Of a DNA stretch of 64,000 nucleotides, positions 9,466 through 60,990 are shown in pieces. Source of the stretch: Nitrososphaeria archaeon. GTDB lineage: Archaea > Thermoproteota > Nitrososphaeria > JACIWG01. The notes beneath the pieces were generated by a model that was not told the origin of the DNA, did no database searches, and was given only the letters and a program-made list of their open reading frames with translations. Each line of letters opens with the position of its first letter. Positions within the stretch are counted from its first letter, which is position 1. The position numbers and the translations under genes are program-made. The DNA lies in contig JBEKIG010000005.1 of the NCBI GenBank assembly GCA_050011875.1, positions 70,653-134,652 of the forward strand, written 5' to 3'.

Positions 9466-9891
9466 ATGGGTTTGGTGAGCTGGTGTAGAAAGAAAAGCCC
9501 TTGGGTAACACACTTTTGCACGGGGTCCTGTAATGCTTGCGATATCGAGATACTCGCGTGCCTTACGCCTCGCTACGATGTCGAACGCTTTGGTGCGGTT
9601 TTAAAAGGCAGTGCGAGGCATTCCGACATACTTCTTGTCACAGGTCCCTGCACCCTTCAGGTGCGCGATCGTCTGATTCGTGTATACGAGCAGATGCCTG
9701 AACCCAAGTATGTCGTCGCAGTGGGAACGTGTGCGATAAGCAGTGGCGTCTATCGCAACGGCTACAACGTCTACCCCGGAGTGGATTCCATTATACCGGT
9801 TTCTGCATATATTTCAGGATGCCCCGTTAAGCCGGAAAACATTCTAAATGGACTAGTGTTTTTGCTGAAGAAGATAGGTGAAGGTAAATGA
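9466..9891 (+). CDS. Group 4 [NiFe]-hydrogenase small subunit (NuoB-like)
   Basis: GSCNACDIE, VGTCA and GCP Fe-S ligands. Confidence 0.92.
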   Translation: MGLVSWCRKKSPWVTHFCTGSCNACDIEILACLTPRYDVERFGAVLKGSARHSDILLVTGPCTLQVRDRLIRVYEQMPEPKYVVAVGTCAISSGVYRNGYNVYPGVDSIIPVSAYISGCPVKPENILNGLVFLLKKIGEGK

Positions 9892-10355
9892 GCTCAGAGG
9901 AAGAGGTCTTTAACGAGCTTAAAAATGCCTTCGGTGAAAAGTTACTTGATCATAAAGTTCAGAAGAGAAGGGTCTTCATTCAGGTTTCTAATGATGTGTA
10001 CAAGGATGTTGTGAAGTTTCTTGTCAACAGCAAGGGGATATACCACCTTGAGATGATGACTGGCACCGAGCTTAAGGATGGTATAGAGGTCATGGCCCAT
10101 ATGGGTTTAGACACTTCAATATCGATTCGGACGACGGTTAGCAAGGATGAACCCAAGCTACCGTCTATATGCGATGTGACAGTCGGCGCCGAATTCTACG
10201 AGCGCGAAATTCACGACCTTCTAGGCGTGACCTTCGAAGGACACCCCAACCCTGTTCGTTTTGTCCTATCTAGTGAATGGCCTGAAAATGTTCATCCTCT
10301 GAGAAAGAGTTATGTAACCAAACATAACGCTCCTCTACGTGAGGGTGTGGAATAA
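9888..10355 (+). CDS. NuoC-like subunit
   Basis: YEREIHDLLGVTFEGHP...HPLRK signature. Confidence 0.9.
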   Translation: MSSEEEVFNELKNAFGEKLLDHKVQKRRVFIQVSNDVYKDVVKFLVNSKGIYHLEMMTGTELKDGIEVMAHMGLDTSISIRTTVSKDEPKLPSICDVTVGAEFYEREIHDLLGVTFEGHPNPVRFVLSSEWPENVHPLRKSYVTKHNAPLREGVE

Positions 10356-11542
10356 TGTCGACCTTCGATATTCCGATCGGTCCCCAGCATCCCGCTCTCC
10401 CTGAGCCTCTTCTTTTGAAGTTGGAGGTTGAAGGGGAGGCTGTTGTCGGTGTTAACTTTGATGTTTCCTACATGCATAGGGGGATAGAGAAACTTCTTGA
10501 AACAAGAAGCTACTTCCAAGGGCTGCCATTGATTGAAAGGATCTGTGGAATCTGCAACGCAGCTCACGGCGTCTGCTATACGCTTAACGTGGAAAAGCTG
10601 TATGACAAAGAAATACCGAAGAGAGCCCAGTACCTTAGACTCATCGTCGAAGAATTGAGCAGAATACATAGCCACCTTCTTTGGCTCGGCATCGCAGCCT
10701 ACGAGATAGGGTTCAACACGATGTTCATGTACACTTGGAGAGATCGGGAACATGTTATGGATATGTTAGAATCCATAACTGGCAACAGGATCACGACGGA
10801 GTACAGTCAGATAGGTGGAGTCAGAAGGGATATTCCACCCGAACTTGCCAGTAGGCTTCTAAAGGTGATGGATGTTATAGAAGAACGTACAAAGTACTAC
10901 ATCAGGGTTGCTCTGACAGATCGTGTAATTGCGAAGAGAACGCAGGGGGTGGGTTACCTCTCCACCGCTGATGCGAAGTCGACCTGCTCGGTTGGTCCAA
11001 TAGTTCGCGCCTCAAGTGTGAAGTTCGACGTCCGCGCAAGCGACCCATATGTAGCACATGATGAAGTACCGTTCAACGTGATAACCAGCGATTCATGCGA
11101 CGTATTTGGCAGGGTTGTTGTCAGAGCCAAAGAGCTCCTAGAATGCGTTAACATGATACGCTACGCTGTGCAGCATCTACCTGAGGGGCCGTTCAGAATT
11201 AAGCTACCCATGAAACCAAATGCCGGTGAAGCTCTGACACGTGTCGAGGCACCTAGGGGCGAACTGCTGCACTACACGCTGTCAGATGGCACCCCTAAAC
11301 CGTACAGGTACAAGGTCAGGACCCCCACCTTAGCTAACTTGGGAGCGTTAAGGGTGATGCTCACCTCTAAGGGAAGATATGTCGTGAACATCGGTGACAT
11401 TCCGATAATATATGGAGCGCTCGATCCCTGCATATGTTGCACGGCAAGGGTTAATTTCGTTGATGTAAAAAAGGGAAAGAGCTGGATTTGGTCTCTGGAT
11501 GAAATCAGAGAAATGTCTAGGAGAGGTGGACTACTTAAATGA
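10355..11542 (+). CDS. Group 4 [NiFe]-hydrogenase large subunit (NuoD-like)
   Basis: GPQHP; L1 RICGIC and L2 DPCICC with all four metal-binding Cys; C-terminal extension after TAR. Confidence 0.92.
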   Translation: MSTFDIPIGPQHPALPEPLLLKLEVEGEAVVGVNFDVSYMHRGIEKLLETRSYFQGLPLIERICGICNAAHGVCYTLNVEKLYDKEIPKRAQYLRLIVEELSRIHSHLLWLGIAAYEIGFNTMFMYTWRDREHVMDMLESITGNRITTEYSQIGGVRRDIPPELASRLLKVMDVIEERTKYYIRVALTDRVIAKRTQGVGYLSTADAKSTCSVGPIVRASSVKFDVRASDPYVAHDEVPFNVITSDSCDVFGRVVVRAKELLECVNMIRYAVQHLPEGPFRIKLPMKPNAGEALTRVEAPRGELLHYTLSDGTPKPYRYKVRTPTLANLGALRVMLTSKGRYVVNIGDIPIIYGALDPCICCTARVNFVDVKKGKSWIWSLDEIREMSRRGGLLK

Positions 11543-12513
11543 GCTTGGAAGGGTACATTATTGAAACGCTTAGAGCCGTCATCTTTCCAGGATTCCTTTT
11601 CATGTTCTTTTTGGCCCTTTTCTACGAATGGTTTGATAGAAAGTTCTATGCGCGTTTGCAGAACAGGGTTGGTCCTCTTTACACAGGTTACTCGGGCATT
11701 CTTCAGCCTTTTGCGGACTTTGTGAAGCTGCTCTCCAAAGAAGATATCGTTCCACAAAAAGTTGACAGGTTCCTATTTACGATGACCCCCCTTTTCTCCC
11801 TGACATTAACCATCTTTGCGTGTCTACTTCTGCCAATCTCATCAGGTAGTGGAATTGTCTCATTCAATGGTGATGCGATCATTTCCATTACGATCCTAAC
11901 TTTCATATGCATAACCGTCTTTTTCGCAGGAATCTGCTCGTACAATCGCTTTGCAATAATTGGCGCTGAGCGTTCATTTCTTCAGCTAATAGGGTATGAA
12001 ATTCCACTGATGCTTTCTGTTGTAGGTGTCGCTTTGACTGCTAAGGTGTTATCCCTCTCAAGTATCGTGTCTTCGCAAGAAAATCTATGGCATATATTTG
12101 GCCCTCAGGCACTCGGATTCGTTGTTTTCATCGTCGCAGCTCAGGCTGAGCTAGAACGCATTCCTTTCGACCTTCCTGAGGCTGAGCAGGAAATCATCGC
12201 GGGATGGAACGTAGACTATACTGGAAGAAGGTTAGCTATGTTTAGGCTCGCTAGGGACATTGAGCTAGTGTTCCTATGTGGGCTTGGGGCAACCCTCTTC
12301 CTCGGAGGACCCTTAGGCCCAGTGATCGAAGGATATTCTACCGTATTTTATACGGTGTACTTTGTAATCAAATCACTATTCATTTTAGCTATTTTAACAG
12401 TTGTCAGGGCTCTATTTGGTCGTCTGAGGATAGATCAGGTCGTCGGCTTCTCCTGGAAGTACATTTTACCGCTGGCATTACTGCAGTTTATTGTTGTGAG
12501 GTTGTTGCTTTAA
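11539..12513 (+). CDS. NuoH-like membrane subunit
   Basis: RKFYARLQNRVGP, QPFADFVKLLSKE and PFDLPEAEQE motifs. Confidence 0.93.
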   Translation: MSLEGYIIETLRAVIFPGFLFMFFLALFYEWFDRKFYARLQNRVGPLYTGYSGILQPFADFVKLLSKEDIVPQKVDRFLFTMTPLFSLTLTIFACLLLPISSGSGIVSFNGDAIISITILTFICITVFFAGICSYNRFAIIGAERSFLQLIGYEIPLMLSVVGVALTAKVLSLSSIVSSQENLWHIFGPQALGFVVFIVAAQAELERIPFDLPEAEQEIIAGWNVDYTGRRLAMFRLARDIELVFLCGLGATLFLGGPLGPVIEGYSTVFYTVYFVIKSLFILAILTVVRALFGRLRIDQVVGFSWKYILPLALLQFIVVRLLL

Positions 12514-12848
12514 TGTCTATGCTGGGTGAAATATTAAGAAACCTGTTCAAGCCGAGGGCTACGGTCCTTTATCCTGAAGAAAAAGATAAGGTTCATCTCC
12601 CGGCAGGTTACAGAGGAAAACTTGAATTCTACCGTGAAAAGTGTATTGGTTGCACGCTCTGCTATCAGGTTTGTCCCTCGCTTGTAATTGAAATGGTAAC
12701 GGATCAAAAGGGTAAAAGGCCTGTTTTTGATATTTCAAGATGCACTTATTGCGCTCAATGTGAAGACATTTGCCCTACGAAGGCGATTCATCTGACAGAT
12801 CAGTATGAGGTGATTGCCTTAGATAGGAAGGATATGGTGGTGAAATAG
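12513..12848 (+). CDS. NuoI-like 2x[4Fe-4S] ferredoxin subunit
   Basis: ATG overlaps nuoH stop (TAATG); CIGCTLCYQVCP and CTYCAQCEDICP. Confidence 0.9.
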   Translation: MSMLGEILRNLFKPRATVLYPEEKDKVHLPAGYRGKLEFYREKCIGCTLCYQVCPSLVIEMVTDQKGKRPVFDISRCTYCAQCEDICPTKAIHLTDQYEVIALDRKDMVVK

Positions 12849-12849
12849 T

Positions 12850-13095
12850 TTGGAGGTAATCTTTCAGGTTTTATTCGGAATTCTCGCCCTGTTTATCGCC
12901 GCATTAGCTATCGAATCGAAGGATATTGTGCGTTCAATACTTTACTTCCTCCTATTCAGCGTCGTCATAGGCGTAATAATATTCATGCTTGGAGCTCCCT
13001 ACGTAGCAGTCTTCCAGCTTATGGTGTACGCGGGAGGCGTTTCAGTGCTGTTCCTCGCGACCCTGCACACTATAGGAGGTAGGATAAAGAAATGA
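12850..13095 (+). CDS. NuoJ N-terminal half-like membrane subunit
   Basis: QLMVYAGGV motif of NuoJ. Confidence 0.8.
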   Translation: MEVIFQVLFGILALFIAALAIESKDIVRSILYFLLFSVVIGVIIFMLGAPYVAVFQLMVYAGGVSVLFLATLHTIGGRIKK

Positions 13096-13364
13096 CGTAT
13101 GAAGGCAGGCCGATATACAGGCTCTTCACGATTTTGATGATGGTCTTTGTGTTCGCTGGGCTGTTCTTTGGGCTGATTCAGATCAGGACAGTCGGCACCC
13201 CTATAGTCTGGGATTTTGTGAAAGCACCCTACTTCATCTGGACCTATAGGTTTATCGACGTCATAGCCCAGGGTTTCATCATCTTTGCCACGGTTGCCGC
13301 GATAGCCGCCTTGCTTAGGGAGGAGAAGATCGGCTTTATGGAGGAAGAGGAGGAGGAAGCCTAA
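13092..13364 (+). CDS. NuoJ C-terminal half-like membrane subunit
   Basis: Two TM segments; WTYRFIDVIAQ; lies between nuoJ-N and nuoK. Confidence 0.65.
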   Translation: MTYEGRPIYRLFTILMMVFVFAGLFFGLIQIRTVGTPIVWDFVKAPYFIWTYRFIDVIAQGFIIFATVAAIAALLREEKIGFMEEEEEEA

Positions 13365-47487: not shown

Positions 47488-47716
47488 TTTTTTTAATCAA
47501 ACACTGAATGAACTTTTTTCAAAATCACGTGGACAGAATGTTAAAAATGTGATTACAACGTTTCTTCCAATAACCTTTTGAGCCTTCTCTTTTTAATTTC
47601 CCCTCATTCATAAAATAATATTATTATTAGTTTGTTGCATGAATCTATGGTGGGAGGTTATCTACGCTTAGGCCTGTCTTGCCAACCTGCAGCAATATTC
47701 GTATAATGTAGCCTAA

Positions 47717-47758
47717 AACAAAAACGGGATGAGAAGACTTTTCCCGAACCCTTTTGTT
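47717..47758 (-). terminator. Possible hairpin terminator after ESCRT-III gene
   Basis: AACAAAA..CGGGA / TCCCG..TTTTGTT inverted arms about 30 bp past the stop. Confidence 0.35.
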
Positions 47759-47784
47759 CGAGCAAGCCGTCTTCTCTTTTGAAT

Positions 47785-48429
47785 TTAGGTAAAGGTTTGG
47801 GTTGCTTCTTCCGACGGCACTCCTGTTGGAAGTTCTGGAAACTTTTCTTTCATTCTCTGCTCTGCTACTGACGATGCTTCTGCGAGTATTCTTTCAGCGT
47901 CTTCGTTTGCTACCTCAAAGTTGAGCGTTGCACCACTTGCGGTTCCAGCGTCCACTAGAATACTACTGAGCATGCCACTGATCTCATTAATCTCTTTTTC
48001 AGCTTCAGGCATTACGCTTATTATTCCGCTCTTCACACTTCTTAGGACAGACATTGCTGGAGCCAACGTTACTACAACGTCTCCAAGCTCTGTTACAGTA
48101 TTTAGTCTTAGTGCAATCTGTTCTAGGGCGACCTTTGACGAGTTAAAGGTCATATTCATTTTTCTTGTTTCTGCAAGCTCGTTCGCGTAGACGCTAGCAC
48201 GCTGTGTATCATGCTTCTGAATGGCGGTGATGACCTTGTTGAATATTACAGCATCCTTCTCCCTCTGCCTCGTGGAAGTAGCCTCCAACTTCGCAACCTG
48301 AGCCTGTATCGCACGAGCAGCATCCTCAAGCTTGGGCTTCAGCGGGCCAGGAGGCCTAATAGCTTCCTTAACCCTTTCACCCATAGAAGGCTTCTGTTCT
48401 TTAACCCACTTTTCTCCAAACTTTGACAT
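47785..48429 (-). CDS. ESCRT-III / Snf7-family protein (CdvB paralog)
   Basis: Coiled coil with RASVYANELAETRK, ALEQIALRLNTV..LGD and AERILAEAS...FPELP. Confidence 0.88.
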   Translation of the reverse strand: MSKFGEKWVKEQKPSMGERVKEAIRPPGPLKPKLEDAARAIQAQVAKLEATSTRQREKDAVIFNKVITAIQKHDTQRASVYANELAETRKMNMTFNSSKVALEQIALRLNTVTELGDVVVTLAPAMSVLRSVKSGIISVMPEAEKEINEISGMLSSILVDAGTASGATLNFEVANEDAERILAEASSVAEQRMKEKFPELPTGVPSEEATQTFT

Positions 48430-48779
48430 TTTTACCCCTCAACCTTAAGTCGATATGATCAACTATTACTCTCCTATGTCACCCATAACATTGTATCCAA
48501 GGTGACAGGTATGACGGTGACAATGATCGGCATAGGCGACGAAAACACAGCCTTAGAGAAAAGGAGTTCGGCCTCAGCGAATACGTATCAAGGGAGGGTC
48601 TATGTCACCTTGTTCAAGGCTCGGCCAACGCAAGATCAAGGACATTGCAATAAATTCTGGTGCACCAAGGACAAACATTCTGAATTGTGCAAAATTAAGT
48701 TGGAAAGAAAAAGGCTCCCGAAAAATCGTTATTTATTATGCATAAAAAATTTATATCTTAGCTGAAACCAATTAAAAAC

Positions 48780-49022
48780 ATGAAAGTTTATACCGATCGC
48801 CTTACTATTTTCAGGGTCATCGGAGAGGTCTTATTTCTGTACGGTTTTATCGGTTGGTTTTATGGGGTATTCGTGGCGTTTACTCATCCAGAGTGGCTGC
48901 CTATGCCCGTGTCTCATCTTTTCCCATGGATGAGAACGGATACTTTCACAATTTTATCCTTCATAGTTAGCGCCATCGGTTTCGTCATGTGGCGGTTAGC
49001 CAAAGAAACAACAAGCCGTTAA
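48780..49022 (+). CDS. Small two-TM membrane protein
   Basis: Two hydrophobic helices; TTTATA box about 30 bp upstream. Confidence 0.65.
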   Translation: MKVYTDRLTIFRVIGEVLFLYGFIGWFYGVFVAFTHPEWLPMPVSHLFPWMRTDTFTILSFIVSAIGFVMWRLAKETTSR

Positions 49023-49129
49023 AAACCGTCAATTTTGACGGGATACAATAGACACCCATTGCAGCGTTGATGATGTACGCGAAAGTTTAGTCCTAATTTC
49101 TTGAATATCTTTTGACAGCTGCCCATATT

Positions 49130-49540
49130 TTATCTCAAAGCTTTAAGTTGATTTAATAAAATTTTGACTTTGCCTTCAACGTTATCCCTGACTCTTCTGA
49201 TATCTTCAATTGGTTTACCTCTTACGTCATCGACCTGCCATTTTTCCACCTTCCCCCTAACTGGAGCTGGGCATGCATCTTCATCACAACCCATCAAAAT
49301 TATTTTTTCTGCGTCCGTGTACATCCAACTCTCCAAAGCCTTCGGTTTGTTGCCGGAAATGTCTATTCCCCTTTCTCTCATCACCTCTACAACTAGTGAA
49401 TTTACTTCCCTAGCTGGTTTTGTACCAGCACTTACAGCATAATAGCTTTCAGGAGACATAGAGTTGAAGAAACCTTCGGCCATTTGACTTCTTCCAGAGT
49501 TACCAACACATATAAAAAGAACCATCTTCTTCTTCTGCAT
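49130..49540 (-). CDS. arsC: Arsenate reductase / LMW-PTP family
   Basis: CVGNSGRSQMAE P-loop, SAGT and GC...ACP motifs. Confidence 0.85.
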   Translation of the reverse strand: MQKKKMVLFICVGNSGRSQMAEGFFNSMSPESYYAVSAGTKPAREVNSLVVEVMRERGIDISGNKPKALESWMYTDAEKIILMGCDEDACPAPVRGKVEKWQVDDVRGKPIEDIRRVRDNVEGKVKILLNQLKALR

Positions 49541-49591
49541 TATAGTTACACTTACATTATCTTATTTAAATTTTGTAATGTCTCGATCGTA

Positions 49592-50752
49592 TTAACTTTG
49601 CAATACCTTGTAAGCTGCCTCAGTACCTAACCCAACTTTTTCAGTTATCTTCAACTCCTTTAATATCAGCTCTAAGGCTGGAACAAGTTGTATAAGGAAT
49701 TGTGGGCTAGCGGTTTCACCCATGTGTCCGATGCGAATAATCTTTCCCTCAACTTCACCATAGCCTGAGCTTATCATAAGACCGAATCTATCTATCAGAA
49801 GCGATATTATCTTCTTATCCATGCCATCAGGAACCTTAACTGCCGTCAGCACTGGTGATGCACCTTCTTCCTCTGGTAAAACATCAAGACCCAAAGCCCT
49901 AACCGCCGCCCGATAGGCTTTTCCTACCCTAAAATGTCTCTCATACCGCTTTCTAAGGCCTTCTTTAAGTGCCTTCTGCTCTGCCAAAAAAAAGGCCCGT
50001 ATAACGGATGTCGGAACCGAAGTGGGATGAGGGTGTCCCAAACTACTCCAATCTTCGACTTCACTAATGTAGGTTGGAATACTGAAGAAATAGGATCTAA
50101 TGGGGTTCTTCCTTTTTTTAGCAAACTCAATAAATCTTTCGCTTATCGCAATCGGGCAAACACCGTTTACACTTGAAAGGCATTTGCTTGCATAACCTAC
50201 CGCGTAGTCGACATCCCAGCCATCGAAATCGATTTCGATTCCACCAAAAGACGAGACTGCGTCGACAAGAAACAGTTTATCATATTTCTTGACAACCTTT
50301 CCAATGTCCCTGATATTATTTAGTATCCCTGAGCCCGTATCGTTTTGTAGCGCGTAAACCGCTTTAACATCTGGCTGTGTATCGAGTATTTCCTTAATCT
50401 TCTCCAGGTCAATTTTTGCACCATGCCTGCTTCTCACTTCAATAACGTTGGCGCCACAGTCTCTCAGCATATTTCCTTGACAGTCACCAAAAAAGCCATT
50501 TGTTATATTGATGACCTTATCGTTATCGCCTTCCAAAACGTTTGGTATAGACATCTCCACGGCAAGGGTGCCTGGAACGGGGACGATCGTAACAAAAGAT
50601 TTTGTACCAAAAATCTTCTTAGCATCTTCACATGCACTGTTATATAGTTCACCCCACTCTTGACCGTAATGCGCCATAACGGGTTTAGAAAGTTCAGCTA
50701 AGATGTCCGGGTCGGCCTCTGAAGGGCCGGGAATGAACAGTATTTTTCTCAA
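49592..50752 (-). CDS. Class V PLP aminotransferase (alanine/serine-glyoxylate type)
   Basis: IPGPS, VDAVSS, ASKCL and RIGHMG motifs. Confidence 0.9.
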   Translation of the reverse strand: MRKILFIPGPSEADPDILAELSKPVMAHYGQEWGELYNSACEDAKKIFGTKSFVTIVPVPGTLAVEMSIPNVLEGDNDKVINITNGFFGDCQGNMLRDCGANVIEVRSRHGAKIDLEKIKEILDTQPDVKAVYALQNDTGSGILNNIRDIGKVVKKYDKLFLVDAVSSFGGIEIDFDGWDVDYAVGYASKCLSSVNGVCPIAISERFIEFAKKRKNPIRSYFFSIPTYISEVEDWSSLGHPHPTSVPTSVIRAFFLAEQKALKEGLRKRYERHFRVGKAYRAAVRALGLDVLPEEEGASPVLTAVKVPDGMDKKIISLLIDRFGLMISSGYGEVEGKIIRIGHMGETASPQFLIQLVPALELILKELKITEKVGLGTEAAYKVLQS

Positions 50753-50792
50753 TTACGTCTTAATGCGTCTAAGATTCGCCTATTTAACTTAT

Positions 50793-50836
50793 TCGGCGGG
50801 AAGTCCCTAGAGCTTTTGGCTAAGGATGAAAGCCGA
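50793..50836. mobile_element. Orphan IS200/IS605-family end hairpin
   Basis: TCGGCGGGAAGTCCCTAG...CTAAGGATGAAAGCCGA; resembles archaeal IS605/IS1341 ends; no transposase nearby. Confidence 0.6.
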
Positions 50837-50998
50837 TAATAATATAAGTTACTCGGGTACAGTTTAACTGGCTTTATGTTAACAAATTATGGACTTTAGA
50901 CCGTTGTCGCATGTTGTTAATGGAGAAAATATTGGTTTTTCTAATAAAAGTTTTTTAATAAGCTTGTGTAAAAGACCAATACCCGTCAGGATGGAAGA

Positions 50999-52162
50999 TT
51001 GCAAAAGGACAATGTGGGGTCCCGAAGGATCCTATCTTACGATGAGGAAATGAAGCTTATAGTGGAGTCCATAAAAAAGTTTGGTCCAAAGAATGTCTCA
51101 GAAATTGCGAGGGAAACAAACCTTCCGACAGAAACCGTGAGGTATAGGATAAAGAATCAGTTAAAGGACGTGGGGATAAGATACCATGTGAGCATAAACT
51201 ATCTTAAACTTGGACTAATACGGTCCTGGATACTTTTGGACTTCTCAATACAGAACCTTAAGCAAGCTCCAGATATTCTTGACCTGCTCTCAAAGAGGGG
51301 GTATCTGACCTATTTCGCCAAGGTCATACCTTATGGTTACTATATTTCCATTTCAACCTTACCGTACTCTGCTATAACTAAATATAGAGAGCTTTTAGAC
51401 GAACTTGTAAGATTGGACATTTTGAAGGAGTACAGGATGATCGACCTACAGTACCTTAAACACCTCTCTCTCAGGCCGGAGTTCTACGACTTCTCAACGA
51501 AGACGTGGAATGTGCCGTGGAACGTCATCGACGCGGATTTAAAGAGGGATTCGAAGCCGATAATAGTGGACTACTCAAGGGCTCCCATAGATAAGATAGA
51601 TCTTTTAATACTTAAGGAGCTCCAGATTAACGCTTTACAATCTCTGGCTTCAATTTCAAAGAAGATAAATGTGGCGGAAAAGCAGGTCAGATACCACTAT
51701 AAGTCACATCTTTTAAACACCAATATCATTGACGGTTATGTTGTAAGATGGCAAGGAGATAGGTATCATCTCACAAACAAGTACATACTATCATGTTTTC
51801 TTGAATTCTCAGATCTGACAGTATCAGATGTCCCATACATCCATAAAGTGATTGAAACTCTACCTTTCACTTGGATGATCGCGCTTTCTGTTGACCGAAT
51901 GAAGCTTATTACACAGATATCAATACCGATAGCCTTTTACCATGACTCGCTCGTCTACTTATCCAACAAACTAAACATATACAAGGAAAAATACAACCTA
52001 TACAACATCGACTTCTACAGCGCTGGATCTTATACGTTGCCATTTGAATCATTTAGCGATGACGTCGGATGGTCTGCTGACATAGACGGCCTAATGGAAA
52101 TGTTTCGAGCGAGAATCCAAGCTACATCAAAAGCTCACATAACAGACTATGTCGGAAAATGA
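50999..52162 (+). CDS. Large tandem-HTH Lrp/AsnC-like transcriptional regulator
   Basis: HTH1 PKNVSEIARETNLPTETVRYRI; HTH2 IDKIDLLILKELQ...SISKKINVAEKQVRYHY. Confidence 0.82.
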   Translation: MQKDNVGSRRILSYDEEMKLIVESIKKFGPKNVSEIARETNLPTETVRYRIKNQLKDVGIRYHVSINYLKLGLIRSWILLDFSIQNLKQAPDILDLLSKRGYLTYFAKVIPYGYYISISTLPYSAITKYRELLDELVRLDILKEYRMIDLQYLKHLSLRPEFYDFSTKTWNVPWNVIDADLKRDSKPIIVDYSRAPIDKIDLLILKELQINALQSLASISKKINVAEKQVRYHYKSHLLNTNIIDGYVVRWQGDRYHLTNKYILSCFLEFSDLTVSDVPYIHKVIETLPFTWMIALSVDRMKLITQISIPIAFYHDSLVYLSNKLNIYKEKYNLYNIDFYSAGSYTLPFESFSDDVGWSADIDGLMEMFRARIQATSKAHITDYVGK

Positions 52163-52222
52163 CATCAATAAATATTGAATCAAAAGATGATAAAATATAA
52201 CAATAGAAAAAAGGGGGGAGGT

Positions 52223-52363
52223 CTACAATACTTCTGATCCACCGATTTTCTGTCCTAGCGGAACAAGTTTCACTATTTCATGTCCTAGAGGAGTAAATCC
52301 TACAGCATATGATGAAATAGCAATCAAGACCAAGGCCAACTTTATCTTATCTTCTCGAGTCAT
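52223..52363 (-). CDS. Small 46-aa peptide with signal-peptide-like N-terminus (absent from ORF track)
   Basis: MTREDKIKLALVLIAISSYAVGFTPLGHEIVKLVPLGQKIGGSEVL*; A-rich BRE/TATA-like sequence about 30-40 bp upstream; pyrimidine/T-run just after the stop. Confidence 0.65.
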   Translation of the reverse strand: MTREDKIKLALVLIAISSYAVGFTPLGHEIVKLVPLGQKIGGSEVL

Positions 52364-52618
52364 GTTTATCTGGCTCTATTAATGAAAGGACAGGGATAAA
52401 TTTTTTTCCTTTAATAAATATTTTCTATAAAATAGATGTATTAAAACTTTTTATTATATAAATTTTTCATTAAAAAATTTATAATGTTTATAAATTATGA
52501 TATTCTATTAATTTACTGCAAAGATATTTTCACAATAATAAGGGAAGAGATTTGTGAAAATGTTTAGTAAAATTTAAATATCTATAATATAAAGCCATCT
52601 TAACTATATAGTGATAAG

Positions 52619-53520
52619 ATGTCATTAGAACATACAAAAATAGTGCATTCTGAATTAATAGAAGTGCTTAAAAGTATTTTTACACAAGAAGATAACGTAA
52701 TCAGGCTTATAATACAAAAAAACACAGGGGAAAAGTTCCTTTACCCGCCACTAGACAAAATGCTTTACATGAAGATTGATAAAATTCTTGATATTTTAGA
52801 TTTCATTGTCTCAAAACAATTTCTAGCAAAGAAGCAGTTTGAAATCCTGAAGTTCTGTCCGGTCTGCTTCTCATACGAAATTATCCCAACCGAGCACTGT
52901 ACAAACTGCGGTTCGACGAACATCTCTAGAGGGAGGATCATAGAACACTTTGCCTGCGGATACATGCCGAAGGCAAAGACTACCTGAGAGGAAAGCTGAT
53001 GTATAAGTGCCACGCATGTGGCAACCTATATGAATCACCGGTAATCGACTACCATTGCCAAAAGTGCGGAGAATATTTCCCAATAGAGGAGCTAGGAGAA
53101 ACCGTAGTATACCAATACGAAGTTGTTAACCACAAGATGGAAATGATAAAGAACTCTCTTAAAACACTCGAAAACCTTGAAAAAACACTTAAAGAGAAAA
53201 ACTATCTGGTAAAACGCGCTGCTCAGGTAACTGGAACGTCAGGGATTGCATTTGATGTTGACCTTTATGCGACAAATTCGGAAAAACAGGATAACATCCT
53301 CGCAGCAACGTATCTGTTAGAAAGCAATATAACTGTGGATGAAATATTACGATTACAGGCGTTGGGATACGATCTAAACTCAAAGAAGATAATCATGGTC
53401 ACATATTCCACCTTCGATCAGAAGGCAGAGTTTCTAGCAAACTACTACAATATTAAGATGGTTGTTCCAGAGAATACGGGCGAAATAAACGAAGAGCAGG
53501 CAATAAAGCTATTCCTTTAG
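52619..53520 (+). pseudogene. TackOD1-like zinc-finger / restriction-endonuclease-like protein, copy A, broken by a deletion of about 67 nt
   Basis: CPVC..CTNCGS..EHFACGY, then frame break at about 52965; CHAC/CQKC and GTSGIAFDVD in the second ORF. Confidence 0.75.
52850..52964 (+). repeat. 115-bp perfect inverted repeat, left copy
   Basis: Identical to the reverse complement of 56851-56965; flanking paralogous DNA is clearly diverged. Confidence 0.95.
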
Positions 53521-53523
53521 CTT

Positions 53524-55464
53524 ATGTCATTCTTAAAACTTCCTTCATTGTCTAATAAAAGAGTCAAAGCTAAGGCTGTTCCATTGGCTGTTGAGGAGGC
53601 TCAAACAGACCCGATTCCTGAAGATCTAAATATATTAGATGAATATTGGGTTAAGGAAAAATTTTCGCGTGTCGTCGTCGGTAGACTTCCAGAAGGATCT
53701 AACATAAATTATTATGTAGATGAAGTTAAACTAAAAGTCGAAGAAAAGGCAGCCTATATCAAAATTTTTGATATAATCGCGAAGGAGCTTAATCCAGCTG
53801 AAATTGGAAAGGAAGAAGACGTCCGCAAGGAACTTCTAGGTGAAGCGAAAAGACTAGGCCAAAAATATCGCATGGCGTTCAAGGCGATTAAGGCCGAAGG
53901 ATGGAATAGGATAAACTACTTTCTTGAGAGGGATCTCTTAGGTTTTGGGCCCTTAAACAGTATCATGTTGGACTATAGAATAGAAGACCTCAGCTGTGAT
54001 GGTGTGAACGTCCCGATTTTTGTGTGGCACAGGAAATTTGAGAGCATACCTACAAACATAAGGTTCTTGAACAAGGAGGATTTAGATGATTATATTGTTA
54101 AGTTAGCTCACAAGTCTGGTAAACATGTGAGTTCAGCGTTTCCAATCGTTGACGCCATGCTCTTTGGAAAACACAGGCTTGCCGCCAGTTTCAGGGACGA
54201 GGTTTCACCGAAAGGATCAACTTTTACGATTAGAAAGTTCAGGGAAGAACCGTTCAGCATCGTTGACCTTGTACAGATGGGCACAATAAATGATGAGATG
54301 GCCGCTTATTTGTGGATGCTCATCGAAAACAGGGCTACGATAATGGTTATCGGAGGCACCGGCAGTGGTAAAACCACAGTACTAAACGCCCTGGCGTCTT
54401 TGATTAAACCAGGAATGAAGCTGGTGACCGTCGAAGAAACCGCTGAGCTCAACCTTCCTCATGAGAACTGGGTGCAGTTCGTCAGCAGAGAAAGCTATGG
54501 ACTTACTGGCGCGAAGATCGGACAGATCAACCTTATGGATCTAGTTAAGACGTCATTAAGATATAGGCCTGACTATCTTATCGTAGGCGAAGTTAGGGGG
54601 GAGGAAGCTTACGTCATGTTCCAAGCTATGGCTACTGGACACGGTGGTCTATCCACGCTTCACGCGGAGAACATAGAATATGCCATAAGGAGACTTGTAA
54701 GTCCGCCGATGAACGTTTCTGAAACGTATATTCCTCTGATCAACCTTGTCATTCTAATCGAGCGTGTGGCCTTGCCTGCCCCGAGGATGGAAATGAGCAT
54801 AGGCAGGAGGGCACGCATGGTTTGGGAGGTTGAAGACTTCGAGAAGTATTCTAACATTTTCAGTTGGATCCCTCAAGATGACGTATTCCTTTCGAGAGCG
54901 AAGGACAGCGTTATACTCATGCGTCTCGCGGAAAGAATTGGTAAAAGCCGAAGGTGGGTCATCAACGAACTCGAACGCAGGAAGATAGTAATAAGGTGGA
55001 TGACAGACAAGGGCATACACAATGTCAAGGATGTTGCCCGTATCGTCTACCAATATTATGCTAACCCTGACACGTTGATAAGCAAGATTGAAGAAGAAGC
55101 TACGATAAAGGAGGAAGTGCTACAGCCGATCTTCGCAGTGGCACCTGCATTACCGGATTCATCAACCGTGGTTCCTGAAGCACCGGCAGAAGTAGAGACA
55201 CCGGTCAGATTCATAGAAGAATCGCTGATAAAGATATACGATATTCTCGTAGCTCTTGGTGGAACCGCATCTTTGGAAACCCTCGCAAAAGACACGGGTA
55301 TGGACGATGTCACTCTATGGAGATACCTGAACATACTCAAAGGATTCGGGCATGTTCAGATTGTTGAGAAGAAGGAAGGTGACAAGTTCTCAACATTCTT
55401 TAATCTAACAGAACGTGGAAGCAGCTCATACGAGACATTGAAGGCAAGGCTTTCTAGGAAATAG
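53524..55464 (+). CDS. Type IV pilus/archaellum-type secretion ATPase (VirB11/FlaI family) with C-terminal wHTH-like extension
   Basis: GGTGSGKT, TVEETAEL, LRYRPDYLIVGEVRG and TGHG..TLHA; Pro/Glu linker and helix-turn-helix tail. Confidence 0.92.
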   Translation: MSFLKLPSLSNKRVKAKAVPLAVEEAQTDPIPEDLNILDEYWVKEKFSRVVVGRLPEGSNINYYVDEVKLKVEEKAAYIKIFDIIAKELNPAEIGKEEDVRKELLGEAKRLGQKYRMAFKAIKAEGWNRINYFLERDLLGFGPLNSIMLDYRIEDLSCDGVNVPIFVWHRKFESIPTNIRFLNKEDLDDYIVKLAHKSGKHVSSAFPIVDAMLFGKHRLAASFRDEVSPKGSTFTIRKFREEPFSIVDLVQMGTINDEMAAYLWMLIENRATIMVIGGTGSGKTTVLNALASLIKPGMKLVTVEETAELNLPHENWVQFVSRESYGLTGAKIGQINLMDLVKTSLRYRPDYLIVGEVRGEEAYVMFQAMATGHGGLSTLHAENIEYAIRRLVSPPMNVSETYIPLINLVILIERVALPAPRMEMSIGRRARMVWEVEDFEKYSNIFSWIPQDDVFLSRAKDSVILMRLAERIGKSRRWVINELERRKIVIRWMTDKGIHNVKDVARIVYQYYANPDTLISKIEEEATIKEEVLQPIFAVAPALPDSSTVVPEAPAEVETPVRFIEESLIKIYDILVALGGTASLETLAKDTGMDDVTLWRYLNILKGFGHVQIVEKKEGDKFSTFFNLTERGSSSYETLKARLSRK

Positions 55465-55467
55465 AAG

Positions 55468-55914
55468 ATGAAGAAAAAAGGTATTAGTCCGGTAATTGCA
55501 ACGGTTATACTGATCGCTGTCGCGGTCGCTATTGCGATAGCAGTCGCTTTTTGGGCATCTGGATTAGTTGGGTCTTTTACACGCTTCGAAAAAATGGATA
55601 TAATTAATTATTATGCAACAAGGAATTCAGGTGATTACATTTTTACAATCAACATGGAGAACGCAGGCCCTTCAGAAATCGTCATACAGGACATATTTGT
55701 AAACGGTGAACCTCTAAATAGTTTTTGGAGCGCCGCTACGGTCAATGGAAGCTCTTTTAGCTCAATTTCAATCAACCCCGGCCAAAAGTGTGAGATCTTA
55801 GTTATGTTTCCTGATAACAATGGAGTAAGAGCTTTCTCGTCTGGACAGACGGTTGAAATTAGTGTTCAAACATCGTCAGGAGTCCATTACGTTGGAACAT
55901 TCCTATTATCGTAG
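55468..55914 (+). CDS. Archaeal type IV pilin
   Basis: Class III signal peptide MKKKG|ISPVIATVILIAVAVAIA. Confidence 0.92.
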   Translation: MKKKGISPVIATVILIAVAVAIAIAVAFWASGLVGSFTRFEKMDIINYYATRNSGDYIFTINMENAGPSEIVIQDIFVNGEPLNSFWSAATVNGSSFSSISINPGQKCEILVMFPDNNGVRAFSSGQTVEISVQTSSGVHYVGTFLLS

Positions 55915-55922
55915 CATTTATC

Positions 55923-55955
55923 GTCAACTACCCCATCTTGAAGGATGTGGCTTGT
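55923..55955 (+). mobile_element. Orphan IscB/omega-RNA (HEARO)-type element end hairpin
   Basis: GTCAACTACCCCATCT-TGAA-GGATGTGGCTTGT matches the GTCAACTACCCC-hairpin-GGGCTTG end of IscB-type IS200/IS605 elements; no IscB ORF follows. Confidence 0.7.
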
Positions 55956-56230
55956 AATATTAGGTGGATGCGGGCAAATTCAGAAGGGAGCAGAGCATTC
56001 TTGTTTCTCGAATTTTTACGTGAAGTGTTCAAGCTGGGAATCATGAATTCTAGCATTATGTTCTTGCAGATTTTCCCACTTTGACACTTCATAATTTAAG
56101 ATAAAAATCTGTAAAGATGTAGATGCCAATTAGGATTGTCAGTTTGCACCTATTACCAAAAGAAAACAGAATGGTAGATTAAAGAATATAAGAAAAAAAC
56201 AATAAATTCAAAAGCCATGTATGCTTTGCA

Positions 56231-57096
56231 CTAGAGTAGTTTTGTTACTTGCTCTTTTGTGATTTCTCCTGTCTTCTCTGGCAAGACTCTCTGTAAGTTA
56301 TAGTAGTCTGCCAAGGATTCCGCTTTTTGATCGAATGAAACGTGTGTGATGATGACGATCTTGTTTGCGTTCAAGTCATATCCTAGGGCCTGCAGCCTTA
56401 GTATTTCGTTAACTGTTAACTTATCCTCCAGGAGGTATGTTTCTGCCAGAATATTGTTTCCTTTGTCAGAATTAGTCGCGTACAGATCTACATCATACGT
56501 TATTCCTGATGTCCCTGTAACCCCTGTACTGCGCTTTACAGAATAGTTGTTTTCTTGAAGACTTCTTCCAAGTGATTCAAGTGCCTTAAGAGAACTCTTT
56601 ATCAACTCCATCTTATGGTCAGTAATTTCATACTGGAACACCACGGTTTCCCCCAGTTCTTTTATTGGGAAGTATTCCCCACATTTCTGGCAATGGTAGT
56701 CTATCACTGGTTCATCATACAGGTTTCCACAGGCATGGCACCTGTACATCAATTTTCCTCTAGAGTGATCTTCGTTTTCAACTAATAGTGAACTATGGCA
56801 TCTTGGACATTCAAGTCCGCCATTTGTCAAGAAGAGGCTTTCCAGGTTCTTGTATCCGCAGGCAAAGTGTTCTATGATCCTCCCTCTAGAGATGTTCGTC
56901 GAACCGCAGTTTGTACAGTGCTCGGTTGGGATAATTTCGTATGAGAAGCAGACCGGACAGAACTTGGTGGGTAGAGGAACCTTTCACCAGTGTTCTTTTG
57001 AAGTACTAGTCTTATGGAATTTTCTTCCTGAGCTAAAATGTTTTTGAGAACATCTATTAGCTCCGTATGTACAATTTGGGTATGTTCTGTTGACAT
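56231..57096 (-). pseudogene. TackOD1-like zinc-finger / restriction-endonuclease-like protein, copy B, broken by a deletion of about 100 nt
   Basis: Paralog of 52619-53520; lacks the segment equivalent to 52750-52849, causing a frameshift after FLYPP; 3' part intact. Confidence 0.75.
56851..56965 (-). repeat. 115-bp perfect inverted repeat, right copy
   Basis: Reverse complement of 52850-52964. Confidence 0.95.
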
Positions 57097-57291
57097 GTCC
57101 TTGTAAGAATTCTTAAATGTTGCATATTTAAGTCTTTTTGACAGAAGGTTATTAGCGATTTCCTAAGTCTTGCCGTTTTGTCGAATTCTTGTAGATATAT
57201 AGCATTTTACACATTTATTCAAATGAAGGTCAGCCTGTGGAAAAGATTATATCTAATCATAAAAGTAGTTTGTAGTTACAAGTGCTTTTTT

Positions 57292-59133
57292 GTGGCAGTA
57301 GCCAAACCGATCCTTGGATACATCGATTCTATTGAGGAGAATCCAAAAGCTCTATCTACACAAATAAAGGCTTTTCGGAGGATCCTCAAATACCATAAGC
57401 CTTACACGCACATCTTAGTTTTCATAACCGCTTTAGCCGTCTTAAGGTCATACTTATTTCTTCTAGAGCCTCTGTACACTTCGCAAATCGTAGATTTTGT
57501 CATCGGCACAAACCCTCCAGTAACCAGCAACATTACGATACTTGCGGGTTTGTTGCTGGACATCCTAATCGCAGTGATAGGCTTCGGAATAGTCAACTGG
57601 TTAATAGTGTACTTCAACGGCACCGTCGCACAGTCGGTGATGGGGGATATGAGAAGTGACTATTACAGGTCACTTCAAGGAAAATCATTCTCATTTTTTG
57701 ACTCCAATTCAGTGGGGGATCTCACTTCAAGATCAACACAAGACATGCAATTTGTTGACATGTTTCTCAGAACATGGCTGAGCGTTATAACTAACCTTAT
57801 TTTTACATTCATTTTCATATATTGGGTATGTTTCACGTTAAATCCAGTGATGGGCTTATTGGCGATAATACCTGTACCCTTCATGTTCTATACTCAAACC
57901 AAGAACTTCTTACTGACGATGCCGCTCTTCAGGAAGATGCAGCTGATTTTAGGCAAAATCGGCACTTACGTGCAACAGAACATCATAGGAATGAAGAACG
58001 TCAGAATCTTTCAAAGAGAAGATGAAATGGAGGAAGGCGATAGAGCTATTGTTCAAAAGTTCACCAACATAGCGATCAGGGCAGGCAAAATTCAAGCAAT
58101 ATACATGCCTTCTGCAACAGCTATCCTCACACTCGGCATCGTGCTTGTCTACTTCTATGGGACTAGCGAGATATTAGCGTTGGGATTATCGTTAGGTTTG
58201 ATTTTGCTATATGCGAGATACATTATGAGAGTGTCAGGTCCTCTTCGTGACTTCAGCATGTGGGTAGGCGCTATGAGCAACGCTACAGCAGGTGCTGAAA
58301 GAGTCTTCGACATAATAGATATGCCTGGAGATGTCGCGGACAAGACTGATGCAAAAGATATCGCGATAGACAAAGGCGAAGTTGAATTCCAAAACGTGAC
58401 GTTTGGATATGTTGAGGATAACCCCATCCTGAAGAACATAAGTTTTAAAGCTAATCCCGGCGAAAAAATAGCTATCCTTGGGGCTACCGGAACTGGAAAA
58501 ACGTCTCTGGTATACCTTATACCGAGATTCTATGATGTTAACTCAGGTAGCATACTGATAGACGGAGTAGATATCAGGAATTTTAAGGTTTCATCTTTGA
58601 GAAGACAGATAGGTATAGTTCCGCAAGATGTATTCCTGTTTTCAGGCACGATAGGAAGTAACATCGCATTTGGGAGGGACAATGCATCAACGGAAGAAAT
58701 CGTATCTGCAGCAAAGATGGCAAGGATAGATGACTTTATTGAAACACTTCCAGATGGATACAACACGTATGTAGGTGAGAGAGGAGTCACCCTTTCTGGT
58801 GGCCAGAAACAGAGGCTCACAATTGCCAGAGCGCTTGTAGCAAATCCTAGGCTCTTGATCCTAGATGATTCACTATCATTTGTAGACGCCAAGACTGAAC
58901 AGTCGATCCAAGAGGCTATCAATGAAGCTTTGAAGGGCAGAACATGCTTCATAATCGCACAGAGACTCTCAACAATAAAGAATGCCGATAAAATAATGGT
59001 TCTTGAGGAAGGTGAAATCGTCGAGTTTGGAACGCACAGCGAACTGATGGCTAAGGGGCAGATATACAAGAGGATATACGAAACTCAGTTCCTTGAAAAG
59101 ACCGCTGAAGAGATATTGGAGAGTACGAAGTAG
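57292..59133 (+). CDS. ABC exporter fused permease/ATPase (heterodimer subunit 1)
   Basis: TM domain plus GATGTGKT, LSGGQKQ and degenerate ILDDS; probable GTG start at 57292. Confidence 0.92.
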   Translation: MAVAKPILGYIDSIEENPKALSTQIKAFRRILKYHKPYTHILVFITALAVLRSYLFLLEPLYTSQIVDFVIGTNPPVTSNITILAGLLLDILIAVIGFGIVNWLIVYFNGTVAQSVMGDMRSDYYRSLQGKSFSFFDSNSVGDLTSRSTQDMQFVDMFLRTWLSVITNLIFTFIFIYWVCFTLNPVMGLLAIIPVPFMFYTQTKNFLLTMPLFRKMQLILGKIGTYVQQNIIGMKNVRIFQREDEMEEGDRAIVQKFTNIAIRAGKIQAIYMPSATAILTLGIVLVYFYGTSEILALGLSLGLILLYARYIMRVSGPLRDFSMWVGAMSNATAGAERVFDIIDMPGDVADKTDAKDIAIDKGEVEFQNVTFGYVEDNPILKNISFKANPGEKIAILGATGTGKTSLVYLIPRFYDVNSGSILIDGVDIRNFKVSSLRRQIGIVPQDVFLFSGTIGSNIAFGRDNASTEEIVSAAKMARIDDFIETLPDGYNTYVGERGVTLSGGQKQRLTIARALVANPRLLILDDSLSFVDAKTEQSIQEAINEALKGRTCFIIAQRLSTIKNADKIMVLEEGEIVEFGTHSELMAKGQIYKRIYETQFLEKTAEEILESTK

Positions 59134-60990
59134 ATGTCAGAAGGACACGACACTTTTTCAGCAAGGGTGGAGCAGACGAAGAAGAGGAGAATTCAAGACA
59201 GAGTTCTAATCACTAGACTCTATCAATACATGAAACCTTACAAAAGGAACTTGATCTTTGGCACGGTCTCTATTGCTGGAGGTGCATTGACGGGGCTGGC
59301 TTCGCCATATCTTCACTTACTAGCTATAAATGACATAATAACACCTACAATCCTGAATCATAGTTCTTCTTATCTCTCAGCATTCATCTGGTGGATTCCC
59401 ATTTTTGTTATTGTAACCCTGGGAACCTACTTTTTCCAGTACGTTCAGACATATCAGATGAGAATCGTGGGAGAAAATGTCGTCATGAACCTTAGGGATC
59501 AATGCACGGCTAAGTTGCAGCAGATATCACTCAGATATTTCTCGGAAGGCGAGATTGGGAGAATAATGTCAAGGCCAACCACAGACTCAAACCAGGTGAG
59601 AATATTCATAAGAATGGGATTGACAACGATGATTACAGATGTCGCTGCAATTTTAGGCTCGTTGGTAATAATATTCTTCCTTAGCTGGCAACTCGCGTTA
59701 GTTGCAGTTTCGGTTCTTCCAATAGCGGTAATTATGGCGTGGTTTCTTGGAGGATGGTCAAGAAAACAGTATAGGCAAACACTCACAAACCTTGCAGGTT
59801 TAGTAGGCAAACTACAGGAGAATTGCTCTGGAATTAAGGTTATAAAGGCACTTGTGAAAGAAGACGACGCTGCAAAAGGATTCGATGAAGTCAACAAAAA
59901 AACCGTTGACTCGTACAAACGGACTGTTTTGATCTCAACAGTGTACCAACCATTAATCAATACACTAAGGATAATCGGGACAGTATTGATACTTGGGTAC
60001 GGTGCGGTCTTAGCTATAAATGGAAGTATCAATTTAGGAATTCTTGCGGCATTCTTGGAGTACCAATTCTCCTATTTCACGCCCGTCACAGACTTTCTTA
60101 CAGCATATGACCAATATCAATCATGCATGTCTGCATTAGAAAGAATCTACGACCTTGTAGATACAAAAGTTGAAGTGATGGATCTCGACAAAGCTATAGA
60201 AATTGAGACCATAAATGATGTGAGATTTGAGAACGTCACCTTCGGGTACGACATTAACGAACCAGTCATACACGACATAAACTTGCACTTAGAAGGATCA
60301 GAGAAACTGGCTATAGTAGGACCCACAGGAGCGGGCAAGAGCACAATAATAAATCTTCTGGAGAGGTTCTATGATCCCATTGGAGGGAGAGTGCTCGTTA
60401 ACGGCTATGATGTCAAGGACATAAAGATTGCTTCTCTCCGTCGGCACATGAGCACAGTTCTTCAAGACTCCTTCCTCTTTTCGATGAGCGTAACAGATAA
60501 TATAAGGTTTGGAAAGCCTGAAGCATCTGACGCGGATGTAATTCAAGCAGCCAAAACCGTGGGGGCACACGAATTTATAATGAGACTGCCAAGAGGATAT
60601 GACTATGTTATAGAGGAGAGTTCATCGAATATCTCGATAGGACAGAGGCAACTGATAAGCTTCGCAAGAACCCTTCTAATGGATCCAAAGCTATTGATCC
60701 TGGATGAGGCTACTTCAAGCATTGATCCATACACCGAGCTGATGTTGCAGAACGCATTGAAGAAGCTTCTTGAAAACAGGATGGCCATCATAATAGCTCA
60801 CAGACTTTCAACGATAAGACTGTGTGATGAGATCTTAGTCATAGATCAGGGTAAAATTGTAGAGAAAGGATCACATGCTGAACTGATGAAGTTGAACGGT
60901 CTATACAGCTCATTCTACAGGATGCAGTTCAAGGAAGAACAAGGGGTTGAAATCGCTGCTGCAGAACCTAATCAGGAAAAGGTTAAATAA
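59134..60990 (+). CDS. ABC exporter fused permease/ATPase (heterodimer subunit 2)
   Basis: TM domain plus GPTGAGKS, ISIGQRQ, ILDEATS and IAHRLS. Confidence 0.93.
   Translation: MSEGHDTFSARVEQTKKRRIQDRVLITRLYQYMKPYKRNLIFGTVSIAGGALTGLASPYLHLLAINDIITPTILNHSSSYLSAFIWWIPIFVIVTLGTYFFQYVQTYQMRIVGENVVMNLRDQCTAKLQQISLRYFSEGEIGRIMSRPTTDSNQVRIFIRMGLTTMITDVAAILGSLVIIFFLSWQLALVAVSVLPIAVIMAWFLGGWSRKQYRQTLTNLAGLVGKLQENCSGIKVIKALVKEDDAAKGFDEVNKKTVDSYKRTVLISTVYQPLINTLRIIGTVLILGYGAVLAINGSINLGILAAFLEYQFSYFTPVTDFLTAYDQYQSCMSALERIYDLVDTKVEVMDLDKAIEIETINDVRFENVTFGYDINEPVIHDINLHLEGSEKLAIVGPTGAGKSTIINLLERFYDPIGGRVLVNGYDVKDIKIASLRRHMSTVLQDSFLFSMSVTDNIRFGKPEASDADVIQAAKTVGAHEFIMRLPRGYDYVIEESSSNISIGQRQLISFARTLLMDPKLLILDEATSSIDPYTELMLQNALKKLLENRMAIIIAHRLSTIRLCDEILVIDQGKIVEKGSHAELMKLNGLYSSFYRMQFKEEQGVEIAAAEPNQEKVK

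Follow-up and report, generated by a model that had tools for sequence, protein, structure and literature searches.

The DNA analysed here, called the window below, is a 64,000-nt stretch from a Nitrososphaeria archaeon, namely, positions 70653-134652 of contig C5 (GenBank JBEKIG010000005.1) in a metagenome-assembled genome (MAG; GCA_050011875.1) that comprises 119 contigs and is 97% complete, with 4.8% contamination. All coordinates given below are positions in the window. The locus under study consists of two genes of the TackOD1 family that face inward around a gene pair for an archaeal type IV pilus ATPase and pilin, and that share a perfect inverted repeat:

52619..53520, + strand: TackOD1 paralogue A, split in the window into open reading frames (ORFs) of 122 and 173 aa
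52850-52964, no strand: first arm of the inverted repeat, 115 nt in the window, from a repeat finder
56231..57096, - strand: TackOD1 paralogue B, split in the window into ORFs of 74 and 199 aa
56851-56965, no strand: second arm of the inverted repeat, 115 nt, from the repeat finder and a search of the whole assembly

The 115-nt block lies inside each of the two paralogues, and the entire assembly contains two copies of it, both at this locus. A previous examination of the DNA without database searches (hereafter, the sequence-only reading) described this repeat correctly: the arms are 100% complementary over 115 nt and are separated by a spacer of 3886 nt according to the repeat finder, with complementarity of just 73% in the outer flanks (52619-52750 and 56965-57096). 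It was also right that the paralogues are diverged save for the block, the background identity being 73.7% against 100% within it. In the pairwise alignment of A and B, there is a 67-column gap in A directly after the block and a 100-column gap in B directly before it. The 122-aa piece of A and the 199-aa piece of B both score above the 32-bit cut-off of the TackOD1 profile (PF18551), with 57.9 and 39.3 bits, respectively; the 173-aa piece of A reaches 19.1 bits, below the cut-off, and the 74-aa piece of B has no family match.

When the segment 52965-56850 was inverted in silico, an open frame of 321 aa starting at the A start codon position, 52619, was obtained, which reproduces by script, for the text of the window, the product that the sequence-only reading had derived; the reciprocal product of the same inversion remains broken, at 74 aa. 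From these features, that reading had proposed a phase-variable switch in which inversion rebuilds an intact gene, with a mis-oriented or collapsed assembly as the alternative. The window is thus confirmed as text. However, at its two deletion junctions, 52964/52965 and 56965/56966, it is at odds with other assemblies of this DNA.

For copy A, the contradicting evidence comes from metagenome contigs, which were scanned using the ATPase as the query; 80 loci were kept. A single contig among these, L028, belongs to this species, with 100% identity, the others reaching at most 86%. L028 matches the window over 47591-52964 (5374 nt) and 52965-56960 (3996 nt), both at 100%, so that there are no substitutions over 9,370 nt and only one indel, an extra 67 nt in L028 at 52964/52965, exactly at the edge of the repeat. 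Copy A in this contig is a single intact ORF of 322 aa (L028:5029-5997), and its product matches positions 7-188 of the 188 positions in the TackOD1 profile with 119.2 bits. The additional 67 nt are A's own version of this part of the gene: there are 11 differences from B in the first 35 nt past the block, followed by a 20-nt run in common with B and by a final 12 nt that are unlike B. Because L028 stops inside the second copy of the repeat, it is uninformative on the 5' side of B and on the second junction.

Parts of the stretch are contained, as Logan contigs (k=31), in 10 public runs. The contigs of four of these, X1, X2, X3 and X6, were aligned to 51500-58200; X1 (share 0.98, depth about 35) is the possible source of the MAG, and X2 (share 0.94) comes from a different study. 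The other two were rejected as junction evidence, X3 for its depth of at most about 4 and a bin (52844-53067) without cover, and X6 as a relative, similarity being as low as 90-95% for 14 of its 22 contigs. No contig among the five from X1 and the seven from X2, which are the complete sets, bridges 52964/52965 or 56965/56966. One of the X1 contigs (record 4, 4005 nt) covers the window from 56876 down to 52965 and continues with 12 letters and then with 81 letters that lie on 56796-56876. Hence 67 letters separate the 3' part of A from the block, and the length of the contig is 3886 + 67 + 2x26. Record 7 of X2 has the same layout: in both contigs, after the 12 letters come letters that align with the 55 nt of B directly past the block, and then the block itself. 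In record 7, this piece shows 11 differences from B's version, which coincide with the sites where A of L028 differs from B.

On the opposite side of the locus, record 2 of X1 and record 11 of X2 reach 56965 from the 5' side of B via 125 letters that depart from the window sequence; of these, the first 44 lie on 52875-52832 with two differences. Given these 125 non-collinear letters before 56965, there are 100 letters between the 5' part of B and the block. The B-orthologue in a genome of the same genus, G001, contains the 100-nt stretch, in which the last 18 nt differ from A at two places, the same number as in record 2 of X1. A further B-type orthologue, P0011, is intact at 321 aa and contains the stretch that is missing from B. 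A search with the first 44 residues of B among longer proteins, aimed at finding its true 100 nt in protein form, yielded three matches, the best at 89% identity, which include P0026 (133 aa) and P0011; none of the three comes from the same strain.

The lengths of the two stretches fit the reading frames. The sums 902+67=969 and 866+100=966 are both multiples of 3, so that the insertions restore the frame and yield proteins of 322 aa (A) and 321 aa (B). Lengths of 320-321 aa are shared by 14 of the 23 homologues of intact A, and 21 fall within 309-343 aa. A search of 41 genomes (G000 included) produced a match in 29. The comparison with related genomes, which the sequence-only reading had suggested as a check, agrees with intact paralogues: a single open TackOD1 frame, of 291-346 aa, is present in each of six family members from other genera, the two shortest (291 aa in G009 and 297 aa in G002) lying at a contig start, and a seventh member is cut by a contig end. 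The two lost stretches were also sought elsewhere in the MAG. For A's 67 nt, the sole match was B's version (82% over 60 nt), and for the 100-nt stretch, with the G001 version as the query, it was A's version (83%).

Altogether, we consider it highly likely, with a probability of roughly 85%, that the apparent gene-rebuilding switch results from two gaps in the assembly, that both paralogues are intact, and that the perfect repeat is a real gene conversion tract. Under this explanation, the assembler would have dropped 67 nt past the first copy of the repeat (52964/52965) and 100 nt past the second copy (56965/56966). In the organism, A (322 aa) and B (321 aa) would be intact, inward-facing genes flanking the pilus ATPase-pilin pair, with A directly upstream of the ATPase gene and in the same direction, and gene conversion between the inverted copies would have made a 123-nt tract identical within the conserved zinc-ribbon segment. 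With both genes already intact, an inversion has nothing to rebuild. The premise of the switch proposed from the sequence alone thereby falls by the outcome that the same reading had named as refuting it, both paralogues being full length, as seen in the 322-aa ORF of A in L028 and in the extra letters in X1 and X2. The absence of 67 nt from A and 100 nt from B, also noted in that reading, holds for the text of the window only.

How the assembler lost the two stretches we can only infer. Both lie directly on the + side of a repeat copy, a placement that looks like a path-walking error. Assembly errors at inverted repeats usually take the form of contig breaks or of a flipped spacer. The present case resembles local misassembly around a short inverted repeat in a MAG built from short reads: the anomalies are located exactly at the repeat edges, the rest of the sequence is identical elsewhere, and the k=31 contigs end at the repeat. 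It differs in the loss of two unique stretches, of 67 and 100 nt. The artefact alternative of the sequence-only reading was accordingly sound with respect to an error at the repeat edges, whereas mis-orientation or collapse, the forms of error it had named, are not what was found.

Two versions of the opposite view, in which the deletions are real, can be weighed against the same contigs. In the first version, the MAG is right for its own strain, and inversion at the 115-nt repeat toggles one TackOD1 gene between the broken and the intact state. The sequence of the window and the in-frame 321-aa product obtained after inversion in silico speak for it. However, neither junction is present in the contigs of X1, the possible source run, or of X2; L028, otherwise identical, has A intact; the scheme needs two independent deletions abutting the tract, with no substitutions elsewhere in 9.4 kb; no recombinase was found nearby; and the reciprocal product would still be broken. 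We regard this version as highly improbable. In the second version, which appears just as improbable, there is no switch, and a minor strain is losing both copies of TackOD1, a loss that the B copy of G001 also seems to be undergoing. The B-orthologue of G001 contains in-frame TAA stops and frameshifts, so that decay does occur in the genus, but the same absence of the junctions from the X1 and X2 contigs and the intact A of L028 count against decay here, and random decay would not place both deletions exactly at the edges of the tract.

Several observations weigh against the assembly-gap explanation. A k-mer-sized repeat or microhomology that might account for a short-cut in the assembly graph was sought by eye at both junctions of the MAG, and none was seen. 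The letters of B's 100 nt are deduced from contig geometry and from orthologues rather than read directly. Logan contigs drop rare variants, so that a minority form with the deletions could escape them, and L028 may share a sample with X1 or X2, which leaves at most three independent views of the locus and possibly fewer. In addition, the terminal 81 letters of record 4 of X1 (window 56796-56876) show no differences from B's version, in conflict with the repeat contig of the same run, which ends 4 nt past the block, where A and B first differ; the same 81 letters apparently occur at both ends of record 4 in opposite orientations, which is odd for a k=31 contig. Copy A in X1 may carry a longer conversion tract, of about 174 nt, or the alignment table may be off for this piece.

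The repeat itself is real. In X1, it is a contig of its own (record 3, 123 nt), consisting of 52846-52964 and four more letters, with a depth of 73.8 vs 31.7-35.7 in the flanking contigs. The coverage check recommended in the sequence-only reading thus came out in favour of a real perfect repeat, the block being at double depth. In both X1 and X2, the repeat contig is entered by the contigs of A5' and B5', which places the tract in both copies and shows that it is not a merger produced by the assembler. The longest run of identity between A and B is 121 nt and the second longest is 20 nt; at the background identity of 73.7%, measured over 843 columns, the expected number of runs of 121 nt is about 2e-14. 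The product of the tract is a conserved zinc-ribbon peptide. Between A and B, 0 of the 115 nt of the block differ, whereas orthologues differ at 13-30 of the 115 nt and at only 2-5 of the 38 residues of the peptide. The nucleotide identity extends to synonymous sites. Selection at the protein level is insufficient to account for it, and gene conversion explains the tract. From this sequence pattern, we infer that the 123-nt tract is probably a product of gene conversion between the inverted copies.

Conversion seems to be recurrent in the genus, given that the B-orthologue of G001 includes a second A-like tract, at alignment columns ~436-510, with 93-100% identity to A vs about 80% to B. Gene conversion (concerted evolution) between inverted paralogues has been described for tufA and tufB of Salmonella. 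The present case is similar in that a tract of perfect identity, synonymous sites included, lies within diverged inverted duplicates; it differs in that the host is an archaeon, the tract is only 123 nt long, and conversion is deduced here from sequence. Two TackOD1 proteins of 321 aa each from the European Nucleotide Archive (ENA), P0004 and P0006, differ at 1 of their first 143 residues and at 24 of the last 178, one C-terminus being A-like and the other B-like. These proteins could represent paralogues of another species in which a far longer 5' tract has been homogenised, or else strain variants.

A tract of this kind might still recombine. In another explanation compatible with two intact paralogues, which we consider very unlikely, the 123-nt tract serves as a substrate for homologous recombination, and the 3.9-kb segment is inverted in part of the population; as a result, the two TackOD1 proteins would trade promoters and their N-terminal 115 residues, and the C-terminal part of A, the ATPase and the pilin would come to lie behind B's promoter. 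The perfect inverted tract at double depth is real, both frames would be open in either orientation, and there is further mosaicism in the clade, namely, the A-like tract of G001. Moreover, conversion between inverted copies implies recombination intermediates, and such intermediates can be resolved as crossovers. Conversely, homologous recombination is unlikely to be frequent over a tract as short as 123 nt, and the orientation is identical in the MAG and in L028, the two assemblies that extend across a copy of the repeat, the k=31 contigs being unable to link across the tract. No contig with the alternative linkage was seen, the Logan contigs (k=31) breaking at the 123-nt tract. Searches of the MAG with PF00589 and PF00239 detected no integrase or resolvase genes on contig C5; the four matches to PF00589 are on C6, C16 (two) and C36, and the two matches to PF00239 are on C29. 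The absence of a recombinase, which the sequence-only reading had noted for the window, extends for these two families to the whole contig. Inversion of the segment is unsupported rather than excluded. A shade less likely still is the functional extension of this scheme, in which the tract would be a recombination site in a peat thaumarchaeon and would underlie a recombinase-independent, domain-swapping phase switch that exchanges N-terminal DNA-binding-like modules together with promoters and thereby rewires the promoter of the ATPase-pilin pair.

Returning to the arrangement with two intact genes in a single orientation, the locus can be compared to invertible DNA switches, including intragenic invertons (bioRxiv 10.1101/2023.03.11.532203). 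Here, too, inverted repeats within coding sequences flank a segment, the inversion of which would recode two genes. Unlike in the invertons, the second orientation was not seen in the two assemblies that extend across a repeat copy, no site-specific recombinase was found nearby, and the repeat is a paralogous coding sequence of 115-123 nt rather than a short recombinase site. Furthermore, orientation does not decide the intactness of a gene: once the missing 67 and 100 nt are put back, A and B both have open frames without any inversion.

TackOD1 (arCOG06883) proteins are described, in the portions of PMC5847659 and PMC4858521 that concern this family, as cysteine-rich zinc-ribbon proteins of thaumarchaeal type IV pilus loci with unknown function, and 11 conserved cysteines are given in the corresponding portion of PMC5847659. 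The proteins at this locus agree with that description in their full-profile match, the CXXC motifs, and the adjacent pilus ATPase and pilin. In 21 aligned sequences, C80, C83, C94, C97, C113, C130, C133, C153, C156, C169 and C172 are invariant. In the AlphaFold model of intact A, the pLDDT averages 77 overall and is about 88-90 in the C-terminal domain. When this domain was compared to the Protein Data Bank (PDB) using Foldseek, the matches included AF1548 (5e-6), NucS/EndoMS (1.6e-5 to 3e-4) and MspJI (3.4e-4). Judging from the model, the C-terminal domain of the TackOD1 proteins of this clade is predicted to adopt the restriction-endonuclease-like PD-(D/E)xK fold, a feature that is not mentioned for TackOD1 in the portions of PMC5847659 and PMC4858521 that deal with the family. 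D237 is invariant and E257 is conserved in at least 90% of the sequences; position E257+2 varies (K, T, E, V, A, I), with N in copy A. The position of the (D/E)xK lysine is thus variable, and the domain may or may not be an active nuclease.

The other genes of the locus and its surroundings are the following:

50999..52162, + strand: AsnC-type HTH protein, 387 aa (Pfam HTH_AsnC-type 3.3e-10, HTH_24 6.5e-9)
53524..55464, + strand: type II/IV secretion-family ATPase, the archaeal type IV pilus ATPase (Pfam T2SSE 1.8e-36)
55468..55914, + strand: archaeal type IV pilin, 148 aa (Pfam Pilin_N 8.2e-4, under the curated cut-off)
57178-60990, after copy B: two tandem ABC exporter genes, 651 and 618 aa, with fused membrane and ATPase domains

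The C-terminal region of the ATPase matches PilB3_C (1.1e-5) and HTH_11 (2.7e-4), and the protein is 78-84% identical to its family relatives. The hydrophobic N-terminus seen in the ORF of the 148-aa pilin is typical of class III signal peptides. In the genomes G005 and G007, the gene for the pilus ATPase (L024:12180-15551 and L025 about 9833-13213, both on the - strand) has an interruption of ~1.4 kb after residue ~379; the insert in G005 is an intein (Pfam Intein_splicing 1.9e-14), and the ATPase in the window lacks one.

A TackOD1 gene adjoins the T2SSE ATPase and pilin genes here and in four family relatives, G004, G005, G007 and G008, in all of which the HTH protein, a conserved upstream neighbour, is encoded next to the TackOD1 gene. 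The order in the window is HTH protein, A, ATPase, pilin, convergent B, and the ABC transporter genes. In the four relatives, the order is aminotransferase, HTH protein, TackOD1, and a convergent ATPase, with the pilin gene upstream of that for the ATPase; a match to the aminotransferase was obtained only in G004 and G005, and the contig of G008 ends inside the HTH gene. Thus, where the other genera of the family have one TackOD1 copy, convergent with the ATPase, the locus in the window has two, which point towards each other from either side of the ATPase-pilin pair. Derivation of the present order from that of the family by one inversion between two copies was considered and rejected, given that the ATPase gene would precede the pilin gene here in either orientation. 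In the same-genus genome G001 (94% complete), the pilus ATPase and an A copy were not found with the queries used; its B-type copy lies at L026:1955-2925 on the - strand (G001:C2), 2 kb from the contig end, and is followed by the same pair of ABC exporter genes as B in the window.

These findings call for caution, in that the sequence of a MAG beside short repeats is not to be trusted at face value. The 'complementary' deletions at a perfect inverted repeat mimicked a switch that dissolved once assemblies of the same DNA were compared, and annotators of this genome would otherwise call two pseudogenes in place of two intact pilus-locus proteins. The locus as such would be of interest only if the segment did flip; the perfect repeat, though real, is an ordinary conversion tract. 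The biology that remains is modest and consists of the apparent concerted evolution of the TackOD1 pair flanking a pilus operon of a thaumarchaeon, together with the predicted nuclease-like C-terminal domain of these proteins.

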